A stretch of DNA of 7,142 nucleotides. Source: a virus (Duplodnaviria > Heunggongvirae > Uroviricota > Caudoviricetes). Numbering within the stretch: the stretch's first letter is position 1; every line of letters begins with the position of its first letter. The stretch spans positions 1-7,142 of IMG/VR virus record IMGVR_UViG_2740892219_000009; one strand, given 5' to 3'. The notes beneath the pieces are model-generated. The model did no database searches, had not been told where the DNA came from, and saw only the letters and a program-made list of their open reading frames with translations. Both the position numbers and the translations under genes were made by a program. This document shows, piece by piece, positions 2,733 to 6,948 of this stretch.

Positions 2733-2895
2733 GATTCCTCCTTGCTGCCAGTCGCAACCATTTTTTATCAACCAGGCTGGCGGTATATCCGAGCAGTGTT
2801 GGTATTTCGGAAGGCTTCAGCTCCGGTTTACGCTTACGACGATTTGGTACTCTGTAGATGTGTCCGCTCATGACACGAATAAGTGGTGTAGCCAT
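2725..2895 (-). CDS. ninE: NinE-like protein (56 aa)
   Basis: Hand-translated from the minus strand: [56 protein letters not shown]. The ATG at 2895 overlaps the ninB stop (TAATG) and is preceded by AGGAGG; the stop overlaps the ybcO start (ATGGCTGA). Too short for the ORF track. Confidence 0.7.
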   Translation of the reverse strand: MATPLIRVMSGHIYRVPNRRKRKPELKPSEIPTLLGYTASLVDKKWLRLAARRNHG

Positions 2896-3350
2896 TACGC
2901 CTCCTGCTTGTCGCGCAGCAGCTGGAACTCGCAGCTCTGCGGAATAGTCAGGTGACAGCCAATATTCATCGCCCAGGCTTCAACCTTACACAGGAAGACA
3001 TACATCTCTCCGGTATCAAGATCGGAGGTATGGCGTAACGACTGGATCGTAGTAATTTCACCGGTTACGACATCAACCAGGTCTTTGGTTTCATAACCGA
3101 GGTATGTGTGTTTGAGTGCATCTTTTACCCATACTGCAGTAGCGAACGTTTTACCCCTGCTGATGAGGTACTCACTGATTTCGCTGTACCACATGTGGCT
3201 GAGTGCATTCTGGGAAAGACTGCGTCTCTCGCGCCACGGCTTAAGCACCATGCGAAAGCATTTACCGTCCTCCAGATAAGGCTGGATCTGCTGACCGATA
3301 GCGGTGAAGTTACCGCGATGCAGTTTGATGCCATCTTGTGGGAGGTTCAC
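2895..3350 (-). CDS. ybcN: NinB/Orf-family recombination protein (YbcN-like, 151 aa, GTG start)
   Basis: Track ORF; GTG start at 3350 with a GGAGGT Shine-Dalgarno 5 nt upstream. The motif [23 protein letters not shown] resembles the lambda NinB core (RNRSLDQNRKLW...). It is the first gene of the overlapping nin chain. Confidence 0.8.
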
Positions 3351-3555
3351 GCTTCACCTCCGCAGAGGTCAAACGCTAGATGCAAAGAATTGCAGGTGCA
3401 TTTCTGCATCTGTGAAGGGAGAAGAGAGTTTGGATTGTATGTGCGCATAAACGTCCCCGTTTAGCGCAACCCCACCGCCGGGTGTTCAGGCCGACAGCAG
3501 AAGAATTTTCTCTTATTGATAATTGAAAATCAAAAGAATTTTATCGGTAAATGAT

Positions 3556-3584
3556 GTGATCAGATAAGAACCACATGATAGAAT
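3556..3584 (+). promoter_or_regulatory. Candidate promoter for the lipoprotein gene: extended -10 TGaTAGAAT with a weak -35 GTGATC
   Basis: TAGAAT at 3579..3584 is preceded by TG at 3576..3577; a weak -35 (3/6) lies 17 bp upstream. It sits about 37 nt before the ribosome-binding site AAGGA and the ATG at 3621. Confidence 0.3.
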
Positions 3585-3620
3585 CCGCCGGATTTTTTAG
3601 TGTAACAAAAGGAAAAAATA

Positions 3621-3977
3621 ATGAAAAAAATGTTGGCTGTCGCATTGGCAACCCTTTTGCTGACCGGATGTACCGTTCGTGTAGCAGACCTTACTGTAGC
3701 CAGTACAAAAAACTATAATTTAAATGGTGGTAAATTTTACAAAGGAAAACGCGTAACTGCAGAAGATAGCTATCCTGTTATCATCTTCCCAACAGGTATT
3801 CCCAATGTAAAAACTGCTGCCGATCGTGCAATCGAGCAAGACCGTTGCGCTGTGGGTCTGACTGACGTTGTTGTAACACAACTTAACCAATCATTCCTGG
3901 TTGGTAAAATTGGTTTACGTGTTGAAGGGAATCTCATTATTGACCGCAGCCTTCCTGGATGCGAAAACGCAGGATGA
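3621..3977 (+). CDS. Lipoprotein (118 aa), probably a divergent Bor/Iss-family member
   Basis: The N-terminus MKKMLAVALATLLLTGC has a canonical lipobox (LTGC) and is nearly the same as the lambda Bor signal peptide. The mature region shows patchy Bor-like similarity by eye (KTAADRAI..., VVTQLNQSFLVGKIGL versus Bor VKTETQQTFVNGLLGF). It is divergent from ninB and followed by a strong terminator. Confidence 0.65.
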   Translation: MKKMLAVALATLLLTGCTVRVADLTVASTKNYNLNGGKFYKGKRVTAEDSYPVIIFPTGIPNVKTAADRAIEQDRCAVGLTDVVVTQLNQSFLVGKIGLRVEGNLIIDRSLPGCENAG

Positions 3978-3982
3978 TGATA

Positions 3983-4010
3983 GTAACCCACTTCGGTGGG
4001 TTACTTTTTA
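3983..4010 (+). terminator. Rho-independent terminator of the lipoprotein gene: 9-bp stem, UUCG tetraloop, U-tract
   Basis: gtaacccac (3983..3991), ttcg (3992..3995), gtgggttac (3996..4004), then ttttta, starting 6 nt after the TGA stop. It is unidirectional; the minus-strand side has no U-tract. Confidence 0.75.
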
Positions 4011-4111
4011 TCTAAATCATATGTGCAGCCAACAAACAATATACAATTTACTCTAAATAGCTGTGGCAGCATTCTCTAACTTAATATTTATTCCGAAACA
4101 GAGTTAATTAT

Positions 4112-5638
4112 TTAAAAATAAACTTCCCCATCAATCATATACCTGAGAGTACTTATCGCCTGTTGGGCAGATATTATTTTCATCAAAGGATAGTGTTTAA
4201 AAACAATACCATTCATAAAATAGATATCACATGTTTTGTTATCTGTGTTTATTATAATTTTTTCGAATGTTTTATAAGCAAGTGTACGACATAATTCCCG
4301 CCCATTTTTACTGGTTAAATCAATGTCATGGAAATCACCAAGTGTACTTACACCTTTACTCTTCAAAGTTTTTAATGATATAGAAACCCTTCGCAATTCT
4401 TTATCTAATACTCTAATTTTTTCTGCTATAGCGGTAACTTCAGGTGCAACAGATAATGCAACAATTAAATTATTAATTTTCATCTGAAGTTCAATAACTT
4501 TCAATTCCAGAGTTTCATTAACATCTTTCTTATTTTCAACTGGTTGGATTTTACTACAATTAAAAAGCAATTCATTAACTATATTATAGTCAACCAAATC
4601 TCTTCTTATTGATGGCCTGTTACATCGATGCAATCTTCTCATCGGGCAAACATAATAGCCGTGCAAGCTTCCTGATACTGCATTAACAATCATAGTATTA
4701 CCACAAGCGCCGCACTTCATAACTGTTCGCAGTAGATTTATCAACATAGGATTCTTGCTACTATTGCTAATACCAAAAGGTGCCAGCCGAATTTCCTGCA
4801 CAGAGTAAAACAAATCATCTGATATCACTCTGGGATAATAGTCAGCGATTTCAATTATTCCCTTCCCTCTTGCACGATATGAAGGTACGCATATACCTAT
4901 CAGCGCTTTATTAGCTAATAATTTTTCAATTACAGAAGGCCCCCATGCACTTTCTTTTCCTGAGAAATTCTTTATAGCATGATCATTTAAATACTTAGCA
5001 ATTGCATTCAAAGAGCGTCTTTCCATCCTTAGTTTAAAAATCAGCTCAATCGTTTTCACCCTGTCAGGGTCTAAGACAAACGACGTTCTTTTTTCATCTA
5101 ATGAAAGCCATCTCGGGCAAGATGCCGTCATAATCGTACCTGACTCCATTGCATCTTGTCTTTTTTTCTTCCATGATAATTTAACTCGGCTTGACTTTAT
5201 CTCGCTTTCTTCATTGGCTCTTTGAGCTATAAGTATTGCTTTTATTAATGAATATGGTTCATTTAAAGAATCAATATTATAAGTTGTATTATCGCACAGA
5301 GTTATAACATCAATACCATGATTTAAAATCAGTTTCAGGCGTTCAATCGCCTCACCGACTTTTTCTCTTGAAAGTCTGTCCAGACTTTCAACTAGCAATG
5401 TAGTTCCTGGCAATATACAGCCATGCTCTATGGCATCTAAAAATTCCGAAAAAGCTCCTGACTGTGCATGCTTTCCATTGAATGCGCTTAACCCCAAATC
5501 TTCATACGTTACGGTATCAAGGTAATAATCACTATTTACCTTTAGCCATTCAGTAATAAGCCTTCTCTGACGGTTTAATGAATCACCAGACATCTGGCTT
5601 GGTGATGAAAATCGCATATATGCTATGGCTTTTTTCAT
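4112..5638 (-). CDS. Large serine recombinase (508 aa; resolvase-type catalytic domain, recombinase domain, Cys-rich zinc ribbon)
   Basis: The N-terminus MKKAIAYMRFSSPSQ...GDSLNRQ...LLVESLDRLSR carries the serine-recombinase catalytic motifs. The C-terminal half has the zinc-ribbon pattern KCGACGN...YYVCPMRRLHRC and a coiled-coil-like region. ATG at 5638 has an AGGTG Shine-Dalgarno. The gene is visibly AT-rich (roughly one-third GC by eye, against over half in the nin module). Size and context recall the DLP12 putative recombinase ybcK, but identity is unverified. Confidence 0.85.
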   Translation of the reverse strand: MKKAIAYMRFSSPSQMSGDSLNRQRRLITEWLKVNSDYYLDTVTYEDLGLSAFNGKHAQSGAFSEFLDAIEHGCILPGTTLLVESLDRLSREKVGEAIERLKLILNHGIDVITLCDNTTYNIDSLNEPYSLIKAILIAQRANEESEIKSSRVKLSWKKKRQDAMESGTIMTASCPRWLSLDEKRTSFVLDPDRVKTIELIFKLRMERRSLNAIAKYLNDHAIKNFSGKESAWGPSVIEKLLANKALIGICVPSYRARGKGIIEIADYYPRVISDDLFYSVQEIRLAPFGISNSSKNPMLINLLRTVMKCGACGNTMIVNAVSGSLHGYYVCPMRRLHRCNRPSIRRDLVDYNIVNELLFNCSKIQPVENKKDVNETLELKVIELQMKINNLIVALSVAPEVTAIAEKIRVLDKELRRVSISLKTLKSKGVSTLGDFHDIDLTSKNGRELCRTLAYKTFEKIIINTDNKTCDIYFMNGIVFKHYPLMKIISAQQAISTLRYMIDGEVYF

Positions 5639-5904
5639 GTTGACACCTGCTAATGCATACTTTTATAAACCTTAGCGGCGAGTTATAATTTTGTTTAATT
5701 TTTATTTAAAAAGACAATCGAGATCACATTTTCTTAAATATACAACAAATACCCCATAGCAATTTGCTGCCACATAAATTCACAGACACAAAAGAATATA
5801 GTGTATAAGCAGCCTAAAAACATTTATCAACAGTATAAAAAGAAGTTCGTTATCAGTGAATTGTTCTGTGATTGGGGATTATTGAACTTCTCGATCGAGA
5901 ATAT

Positions 5905-6198
5905 TCAGAACCCAGCGGGGGAACTCTTTGGCCACAGGAGTTCGTGCGAACATGACGATCCGTTGGTCTCCCCGAAGGCTAAATACTCGAGACGCCTGCA
6001 TTCCACGAGGGTGGTCACTTTGCCCCCTCCTATCATCATGTCTGTAAATTCATCTGAGTGACGAGAGTAAATGCGCTTAGCTGCGTTATCGTCCGCATAT
6101 TCCATTGCTAAACCAACTTCAGTGGCAGTAAGCCAAATTCTGTTGTTGTGGCAAATCGGGGTAAACGTCGTTTTGTGGAATGCTAATTGAGTAGTCAT
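5905..6198 (-). CDS. BRO-N / antirepressor-N-like domain protein (97 aa), possibly a truncated N-terminal fragment
   Basis: ATG at 6198 has a GAGGTG Shine-Dalgarno at 5-nt spacing. The motif F.K..FTPICHNNRIWLTATEVGLAMEYADD...SDEF resembles the BRO-N / P22 Ant N-terminal signature (F.F...IR...DGEPWF.A.DVA..LGY...D.DEK). The ORF ends where composition switches to AT-rich, and there is no C-terminal domain. Confidence 0.45.
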   Translation of the reverse strand: MTTQLAFHKTTFTPICHNNRIWLTATEVGLAMEYADDNAAKRIYSRHSDEFTDMMIGGGKVTTLVECRRLEYLAFGETNGSSCSHELLWPKSSPAGF

Positions 6199-6222
6199 AG
6201 TATCACCTCATCAGGTTAACAA

Positions 6223-6255
6223 TCACCACCAACGACGCCAATCGACAGGTGGTGA
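6223..6255. other. Inverted repeat with 8-bp stem (tcaccacc ... ggtggtga) and 17-nt spacer, upstream of the BRO-N-like gene
   Basis: Arms at 6223..6230 and 6248..6255, inside a GC-rich ORF-free stretch about 25 nt upstream of the BRO-N start. Could be an operator or an RNA hairpin. Confidence 0.3.
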
Positions 6256-6561
6256 ACTGTGCAAGGTTGGCGTAACCGGCTACACAAACCCGGCGCTTCC
6301 GAAGAAGCCCTCACACAGCCCACCATAATTTGGGCGTAGCCGCGCTTAGCGCATAAAAAAACTGCTTAACGCGGTATGCGTTGAGTAGTGTTCCGGGACG
6401 CCAATCCCGTGTGCCGATTTTGCGGCAACACAAAGAATTAGCCCCAGTGAATGGTGGCGGTCAACCGCAGTCATTCATTCTCATAATGTGATCACCATCA
6501 CTCAACAGGTTCCAGAAACCGCTCTATCATACTGACTTTAAACAGTTTTTAGGTGTTAAAT

Positions 6562-6948
6562 ATGTGGTTTATAGTATTAATAGCTATCCTGATTATTGCC
6601 GCTTTCGTTTTTAAAAGCTCCAAATCCAAAAATCCACCTTCGCAACCAGTTCGTACTACTAAAAAAATAAAGGCACCCACACATAAAAAAACGCAAACTA
6701 ACTATAGTTATAGTACCGATATCATTGAGTTAGATATAACTTATCAGGATGCGAAGGGCGAAATCACTAATCGCCATATATCTATCATAAAATACGACCC
6801 TTCAAAGAAAAAAATATATGCACGGTGCCATTTAAGAAAAAGCATGCGAAGTTTCTATATTGATAGAATATTAACCGCAATAGATATTGAAACTGGCGAA
6901 ATTCTTTCAGATCTCGACGGGTATATATCAGAAAGAATAAACTATTAA
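6562..6948 (+). CDS. Small membrane-anchored protein (128 aa) with a WYL-like C-terminal domain
   Basis: Track ORF 6553..6948 starts at a GTG; the ATG at 6562 is preceded by AGGTG at 6-nt spacing. The N-terminus WFIVLIAILIIAAFVF is a single transmembrane helix, followed by a Lys/Ser/Thr-rich linker and a beta-rich domain containing KIYARCHLRKSMRSFYIDRI, which resembles the WYL-domain core (WYL.A.C......R.FR.DRI). The gene is AT-rich. Confidence 0.6.
   Translation: MWFIVLIAILIIAAFVFKSSKSKNPPSQPVRTTKKIKAPTHKKTQTNYSYSTDIIELDITYQDAKGEITNRHISIIKYDPSKKKIYARCHLRKSMRSFYIDRILTAIDIETGEILSDLDGYISERINY

Follow-up and report, generated by a model that had tools for sequence, protein, structure and literature searches.

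We analysed the whole of contig BBVT01000064.1 from an Escherichia albertii draft genome, a window of 7142 base pairs (bp) that is a fragment of a defective DLP12-type lambdoid prophage, and found that it carries a moron with all the features that define such an element. The cassette lies on the plus strand at 3556-4010, measures about 435 bp from its -10 element to its terminator, and encodes a predicted lipoprotein precursor of 118 amino acids (aa). The protein family is already catalogued as PHROG 7441, and the prophage-borne outer-membrane (OM) lipoprotein moron is a well-known kind of element. As a whole, the data are best explained by a mobile moron whose OM lipoprotein would be expressed in the lysogen and would protect the cell envelope, a reading to which we assign a probability of about 55%. 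An earlier note on this DNA had described the unit as a Bor-like cassette of the lysogenic-conversion type. The second half of this description stands, because the element is a moron, is placed antisense in the nin region, and occupies varied positions in other elements. The first half does not, as discussed below.

The earlier note had proposed a self-contained expression unit consisting of an extended -10 promoter candidate, an AAGGA ribosome-binding site, a lipobox protein and a strong UUCG-loop terminator, and all of these parts were indeed found. The candidate promoter element TGaTAGAAT is located at 3576-3584 (TG at 3576-3577, TAGAAT at 3579-3584) and is recognised by its consensus and its conservation. 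Five independent homologous cassettes, from Klebsiella, Salmonella, Pseudomonas and Aeromonas, carry TGnTAnnnT at the equivalent place, 30-40 nucleotides (nt) ahead of the ATG, and in a DNA alignment the cassettes of E. albertii, Klebsiella and Salmonella are homologous from exactly the -10 element up to the terminator. The site is not listed by a generic promoter scan because the scan demands at least 4/6 matches in each hexamer. The weak -35 candidate GTGATC (3556-3561), which stands 17 nt upstream of the -10 and has 3/6 matches to TTGACA, is not conserved among the homologous cassettes and is at most a putative -35 element. AAGGA follows at 3609-3613, 7 nt before the ATG, with AAAGGAAA conserved at this site across the enterobacterial copies. 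The lipoprotein gene itself covers 3621-3977, stop codon included. At 3982-4010 we found an intrinsic terminator with a 10-bp stem AGTAACCCAC/GTGGGTTACT (3982-4005), a UUCG loop and TTTTT, which folds with -20.9 kcal/mol (z = -5.7; none of 200 shuffled sequences folds as well). In Klebsiella, Salmonella and Pseudomonas the stop codon is likewise followed by a hairpin with a T-run, and in Aeromonas by a GC-rich hairpin that lacks a clear T-run. All 455 bp of the cassette (3556-4010) are identical in nine other E. albertii-type loci, and its GC content of 0.39-0.43 compares with 0.49-0.52 in the nin genes and 0.29-0.40 in ybcK.

The positions at which the gene is found differ from one carrier to the next. 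The E. albertii lambdoid prophages hold the cassette antisense in the slot between ybcK and ybcN, Pseudomonas prophages hold the gene between Q and the holin gene, and Klebsiella and Salmonella siphophages hold it between the tail-tube/chaperone genes and the tape-measure gene, the site just upstream of the latter being the kind of place where HK97 gp15 sits. The gene is also carried by integrase-primase satellites or islands, in Aeromonas beside an Imm_superinfect gene and likewise in Pantoea, and by a 231-kb Aeromonas jumbo phage. Lone chromosomal genes adjoin an omptin gene in Salmonella bongori and rpoD in Shewanella. Repeated capture of one subfamily by phages, satellites and islands of Gammaproteobacteria, with chromosomal relatives in several Gram-negative phyla, is strongly supported by these data. 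In the E. albertii slot the homology to E. coli phages and prophages reaches as far as window position 3468 or 3534 and sets in again at about 4095-4107, and elsewhere the slot holds other cargo, for example an antisense esterase in phage 4A7 and small open reading frames (ORFs) in phage Turner. None of 5,426 complete E. coli genomes contains the cassette DNA. With the classic lambdoid morons, HK97 gp15 and the DLP12 ybcK-ybcN cargo, the element thus shares the series of promoter, single gene and terminator, a differing base composition, the orientation antisense to the phage operon, and the insertion between genes that in relatives are adjacent or enclose other cargo. It differs from them in its cargo, which belongs to another, uncharacterised protein family.

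The slot is bordered on the left by ybcN (2895-3350, minus strand), the gene at the NinB position, and on the right by a ybcK-type large serine recombinase gene (4112-5638, minus strand; Pfam Resolvase, Recombinase and Zn_ribbon_recom), which is convergent with the lipoprotein gene. The left neighbour had been called ninB. This is correct for the position and not for the name, since NCBIfam PRK09741 identifies ybcN (7.5e-83) and the Pfam NinB match stays below the cut-off. The earlier note had also placed the cassette where lambda has its replication genes, and this is imprecise: P and O are found about 3-4 kb past ybcK in the full-length relatives (L001-L009), so the replication genes are not displaced. 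DLP12-type prophages and phages of E. coli contain the ybcK block at about 90% identity, under the annotation ybcK. In one E. albertii locus (L003) ybcK is frameshifted, and in the window a 21-nt imperfect inverted repeat at 4051-4071 and 5765-5785 brackets the ybcK-type gene. Two ideas about this gene were considered and rejected. That ybcK and the cassette form one mobile unit is contradicted by the E. coli ybcK phages, which hold other cargo, and by the lipoprotein gene, which travels without ybcK elsewhere; and that the cassette terminator also serves the convergent ybcK does not agree with the minus strand, which has no T-run.

The precursor starts with a signal peptide of residues 1-16, MKKMLAVALATLLLTG, which is followed by the predicted lipidated cysteine Cys17 (3669-3671) in the lipobox LLTG-C17, with Thr at position +2. 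Pfam LPAM_1 gives 21.3 bits against a cut-off of 20. For the lipobox we used the pattern [LVI][ASTVI][GAS]C with the cysteine at residues 15-35, a positive n-region and a hydrophobic h-region, and direct reading by this PROSITE-type rule finds K2 and K3, the h-region MLAVALATLLL, no charge at -10 to -5, and Cys17. G16 and C17 are invariant in 36 homologues. The signal peptide and the lipobox are hence confirmed by the Pfam model and by direct reading.

The function-unassigned family PHROG 7441 matches the protein with E=1e-67, residues 1-117 being aligned to positions 1-117 of the 118 in the profile. Protein searches furnished 323 close homologues of 67-100% identity in Enterobacterales, Aeromonas, Pseudomonas and Shewanella, and Acinetobacter copies with about 65% identity; all of these are annotated as hypothetical or as lipoprotein, and none has a Pfam domain. 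For the lipoprotein itself no Pfam, NCBIfam or PADLOC family match was obtained, and the literature gave no specific match to a characterised prophage lipoprotein of the cassette's type. An exhaustive search extended the family to 405 clusters at 50% identity. Its distant members, from Bacteroidales, Planctomycetes, Verrucomicrobia and Thermodesulfobacteriota, are 158-175 aa long, carry a C-terminal extension and keep the motifs GC.xR..DFT..STKN, RVEG.D, PN.KEAIDRAIE and VEGTP. A few relatives possess a C-terminal LysM domain, and these fusions point to a place of the family near peptidoglycan. We observed in addition that the Acinetobacter copies (6001-6357 in L115-L117) show conserved synteny next to an MBL-fold gene and DUF6670, and that a relative on a metagenome contig (among L112 6001-6480 and L113 6001-6504) adjoins alr and folD.

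Within the 36 close homologues 31 positions are invariant, C76 and C114 among them, and the invariant polar residues are D23, T25, S28, K30, R44, D49, K64, D68, E102 and D108. Synonymous sites are saturated (pS 0.72-0.85), pN amounts to 0.075-0.22, and dN/dS is 0.03-0.08 where it could be computed. These values strongly support the view that the family is under strong purifying selection.

An AlphaFold2 model calculated with a deep alignment (pLDDT 93, pTM 0.80) contains the signal helix followed by a compact beta-beta-alpha-beta-beta domain, which is probably stapled by a disulfide between Cys76 and Cys114. The nearest folds are those of YbjQ and dodecin. The likeness to the compared chains is one of common topology at 9-19% identity, and PDB sequence searches, done with the protein and with a profile of alignment A2 (127 sequences, namely the lipoprotein and 126 relatives at 30-64% identity), returned only noise and no profile link to those chains. 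YbjQ/UPF0145 (DUF74) and dodecin also differ from the lipoprotein in being cytoplasmic oligomeric proteins, and no sequence relation to them was detected.

We propose that the precursor would be lipidated at Cys17 and transferred in a Lol-dependent manner to the inner leaflet of the OM. Such anchoring is expected by the enterobacterial Lol rule, because the residue at +2 is Thr and a Lol-avoidance Asp is missing. A globular domain of 101 residues would then face the periplasm, where DsbA could form the C76-C114 disulfide. The lysogen would express the gene from the cassette's own sigma-70 promoter; we infer this from the presence of that promoter and from the antisense position relative to the early-right (pR) operon, which is repressed in the lysogen. 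On the minus strand the hairpin lacks a T-run, and antiterminated phage transcription should therefore pass it. At its destination the protein may bind a conserved component of the envelope, for example peptidoglycan or an outer-membrane assembly factor. That it thereby protects its carrier at the level of the envelope, most plausibly by excluding superinfecting phages, is a tentative proposal which we regard as possible rather than probable, and the main alternative is a role in host fitness such as stress or serum tolerance.

Protection of the envelope agrees with the carriage of the gene by prophages, satellites and lytic phages at hotspots of conflict genes and with the existence of LysM-fused relatives, and the conservation of the family seems too broad for a specific receptor, which would also support it. 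Because lytic phages and satellites that have no tail carry the gene too, a role in phage conflict is favoured over one confined to animal hosts. By analogy, the mechanism class of Cor (phi80, N15, T1) and Llp (T5) would be the most likely one for the lipoprotein: these are phage-encoded OM lipoproteins that act from the periplasmic side and are found in temperate and lytic phages alike. Going further, one may speculate that PHROG 7441 constitutes a new class of superinfection-exclusion lipoproteins, borne by phages, satellites and islands, with an RcsF/YbjQ-like fold, derived from an ancient Gram-negative family and directed at a universal envelope target, for instance peptidoglycan or a factor of OM biogenesis, in place of a specific receptor. 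Such a target would explain both the roughly 70% identity between Escherichia and Pseudomonas copies and the carriage by phages with unrelated tails; we nevertheless consider this extension rather doubtful.

Several observations weigh against an envelope-protecting moron. The carriers differ greatly in their tails and receptors, ranging from siphoviruses and a P22-like podovirus to a jumbo phage and satellites that have no tail; receptor masking of the Cor/Llp type is therefore disfavoured, and the masking of an FhuA-type receptor matched to the carrier phage is unlikely. In PHROG the likeness to Cor, Llp and further known exclusion lipoproteins does not go beyond the signal peptide (phrog_1119, the Cor family, aligned to residues 1-19 only, E=0.022), and the search of PADLOC-DB 2.0 gave 0 families at E<=1. 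Among the contigs examined, the Acinetobacter copies and two relatives from distant phyla have stable, non-mobile chromosomal settings, and these copies suggest a housekeeping role in the envelope that is independent of phages; it follows that the phage gene was captured from an ancient family of host lipoproteins, one that Pfam does not list. The invariant polar residues could equally fit ligand binding or oligomerisation, as in the YbjQ and dodecin folds. Finally, the promoter is deduced from consensus and conservation, and the Cys76-Cys114 disulfide from the invariance of the two residues and not from the model.

The assignment to Bor/Iss, by which a divergent member of that family would give the lysogen serum (complement) resistance, has some basis. 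Both are short OM lipoproteins borne by prophages, their MKKML...TGC leaders are nearly identical, each mature part contains two cysteines, and both genes have their own promoter for the lysogen and run antisense to neighbouring phage genes. A single BLASTP comparison with lambda Bor, which includes the shared leader, reaches E=0.001 at 27% identity over 99 residues, and once the signal peptides are removed hhalign with the close-homologue profile still aligns GIPxxKT...C.G...VV.T...F..G..G (P=0.039, probability 1.3%). Since E. albertii is an enteric pathogen, serum resistance would moreover be useful to it. However, the same comparison with a broadened profile yields P=0.48, and a signal that becomes weaker as the profile broadens is unlike true homology; the Bor profile in these comparisons was shallow (Neff 1), as a protein search, a phage tblastn and an IMG/VR scan yielded no sequence below 90% identity to lambda Bor, so that a very remote kinship may have escaped them. 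Pfam Lambda_Bor (PF06291), which recognises lambda Bor itself with 1.9e-30 as the positive control, has no match to the lipoprotein at E<=1 and matches none of the 127 A2 sequences at E<=0.01. PHROG Bor (phrog_260) aligned to residues 1-28 only, the region of the signal peptide, with E=0.17, and the fold search of BFVD gave nothing significant and no Bor. The cassette protein is also longer (118 versus 97 aa), its gene sits in the nin region and not downstream of the lysis genes, and its family extends to environmental and non-enteric taxa, being common in environmental Pseudomonas, Shewanella and Aeromonas and present in a lytic jumbo phage and distant phyla, where serum is irrelevant. The earlier note had named the lack of both a Bor/Iss profile hit and a lipobox as what would speak against it: the profile hit is lacking, the lipobox is real, but a lipobox is common to all lipoproteins and hence does not discriminate. 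By none of the profile tests run does the lipoprotein appear as a Bor/Iss homologue, and we regard a Bor-like serum-resistance function as quite unlikely.

Three further explanations were weighed. If the protein were a captured housekeeping envelope protein, for instance a ligand- or metal-binding, peptidoglycan- or OM-associated oligomer that gives the lysogen a generic gain in fitness, one would understand the syntenic, non-mobile chromosomal copies beside housekeeping genes in Acinetobacter and distant phyla, the extreme conservation over the whole domain with its many polar residues, the nearest folds (YbjQ and dodecin being oligomeric ligand binders), and the LysM fusions in some relatives. 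It would fit less well with the fact that phages, a lytic jumbo phage among them, and satellites have captured the gene repeatedly and independently, each time with its own promoter and terminator, as cargo at hotspots is usually related to conflict; Escherichia, furthermore, has no core copy, so the protein is not generally required. We consider this explanation possible, if on the unlikely side. A mimic of RcsF, which would engage IgaA or the outer-membrane protein (OMP)/BamA complexes, switch on Rcs and block adsorption broadly through a colanic-acid capsule, is very unlikely. The long disordered linker of RcsF is missing from the lipoprotein, which also has a single candidate disulfide where RcsF has two; the PDB chains of RcsF (2y1b, 9biy) share 14% identity with the lipoprotein and show no sequence-profile match; and the lipoprotein family, ranging far beyond Enterobacterales, abounds in Pseudomonas, Aeromonas, Shewanella, Acinetobacter, Bacteroidales and Planctomycetes, none of which is known to have an Rcs system. 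This last point in particular led us to down-weight the mimic. The gene might also be a silent passenger, that is, an intact ORF that is unexpressed or non-functional in a defective prophage. The damage to the prophage (IS911 in the endolysin gene, the ybcK frameshift in one related locus) and the poor -35 element are in line with this, but extended -10 promoters work without a -35, conservation extends to the promoter, ribosome-binding site and terminator elements, 10 loci share the cassette with 100% identity, and purifying selection on the family is strong, so that we hold a silent gene to be highly improbable. The mobile moron with a lysogen-expressed, envelope-protecting OM lipoprotein hence stays our preferred reading.

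Outside the cassette, the beginning of the window deserves a comment, because the terminator hairpin had been reported to recur there and a repeated cassette or terminator had been considered. Positions 1-81 are the right end of the insertion sequence IS911 and are 100% identical to IS911 copies in E. coli. Of the hairpin only the 11-nt 3' arm CGGTGGGTTAC recurs, at 1-11, within IS911 orfB, and the IS911 sequence in front of this 11-mer ends in CGAATATAA, which is not the left arm. The hairpin is therefore not formed there, the match is a chance 11-mer, and a second copy of hairpin or cassette was rejected. IS911 has inserted into the lambda-R-type endolysin gene and left a truncated stump of 43 aa (48-179), so the prophage is lysis-defective. 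The contig ends inside this repeated element.

The early-right and late genes of the prophage lie on the minus strand and include the holin gene (166-585), Q (1260-1949), ylcG, rusA, ybcO and ninE. Near Q a promoter-like sequence TTGCAA-17-TATATT (1276-1248, minus strand) and, immediately downstream of Q, a 12-bp hairpin terminator (1192-1166, minus strand) together look like the late promoter pR' and its Q-antiterminated terminator. Antisense between the holin gene and Q, the plus strand encodes at 783-1094 a protein of 103-107 aa that begins with a signal peptide. Pfam, NCBIfam and PADLOC gave no match to it and PHROG no convincing one, and it is a candidate for a second moron, in the Q-holin hotspot; at this position other E. 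albertii prophages hold DUF2441 or a three-gene cassette. At 6553-6948 (plus strand) we found a gene for a protein of 128-131 aa with an N-terminal transmembrane helix and a WYL-like domain, which matches PADLOC RTasWYL-YodC (DRT) with 6e-9 and phrog_6785 with 1e-12. It takes the place, between ybcK and ren, that emrE/qacE occupy in E. coli relatives, and is therefore another cargo gene. A 97-aa ORF at 5905-6198 (minus strand) lies inside a segment (about 5843-6471) with 92% identity to part of the 'Rha protein' gene of phage PhiR26_1 and is probably the remnant of a Rha/antirepressor-type gene.

In summary, the cassette is a moron whose product should be neither annotated as Bor/Iss nor scored as a serum-resistance virulence gene. 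Morons are a means by which temperate phages change their hosts, and the cargo in this case belongs to a strongly conserved family (dN/dS of about 0.03-0.08) that has neither a Pfam entry nor a functional annotation, and whose members are spread over the prophages, satellites and chromosomes of many Gram-negative bacteria, among them Klebsiella, Salmonella, Cronobacter, Serratia, Pseudomonas, Aeromonas and Acinetobacter. If the protein is indeed an envelope factor for phage exclusion or for stress tolerance, it would be relevant to the host range in phage therapy and to the biology of the outer membrane.

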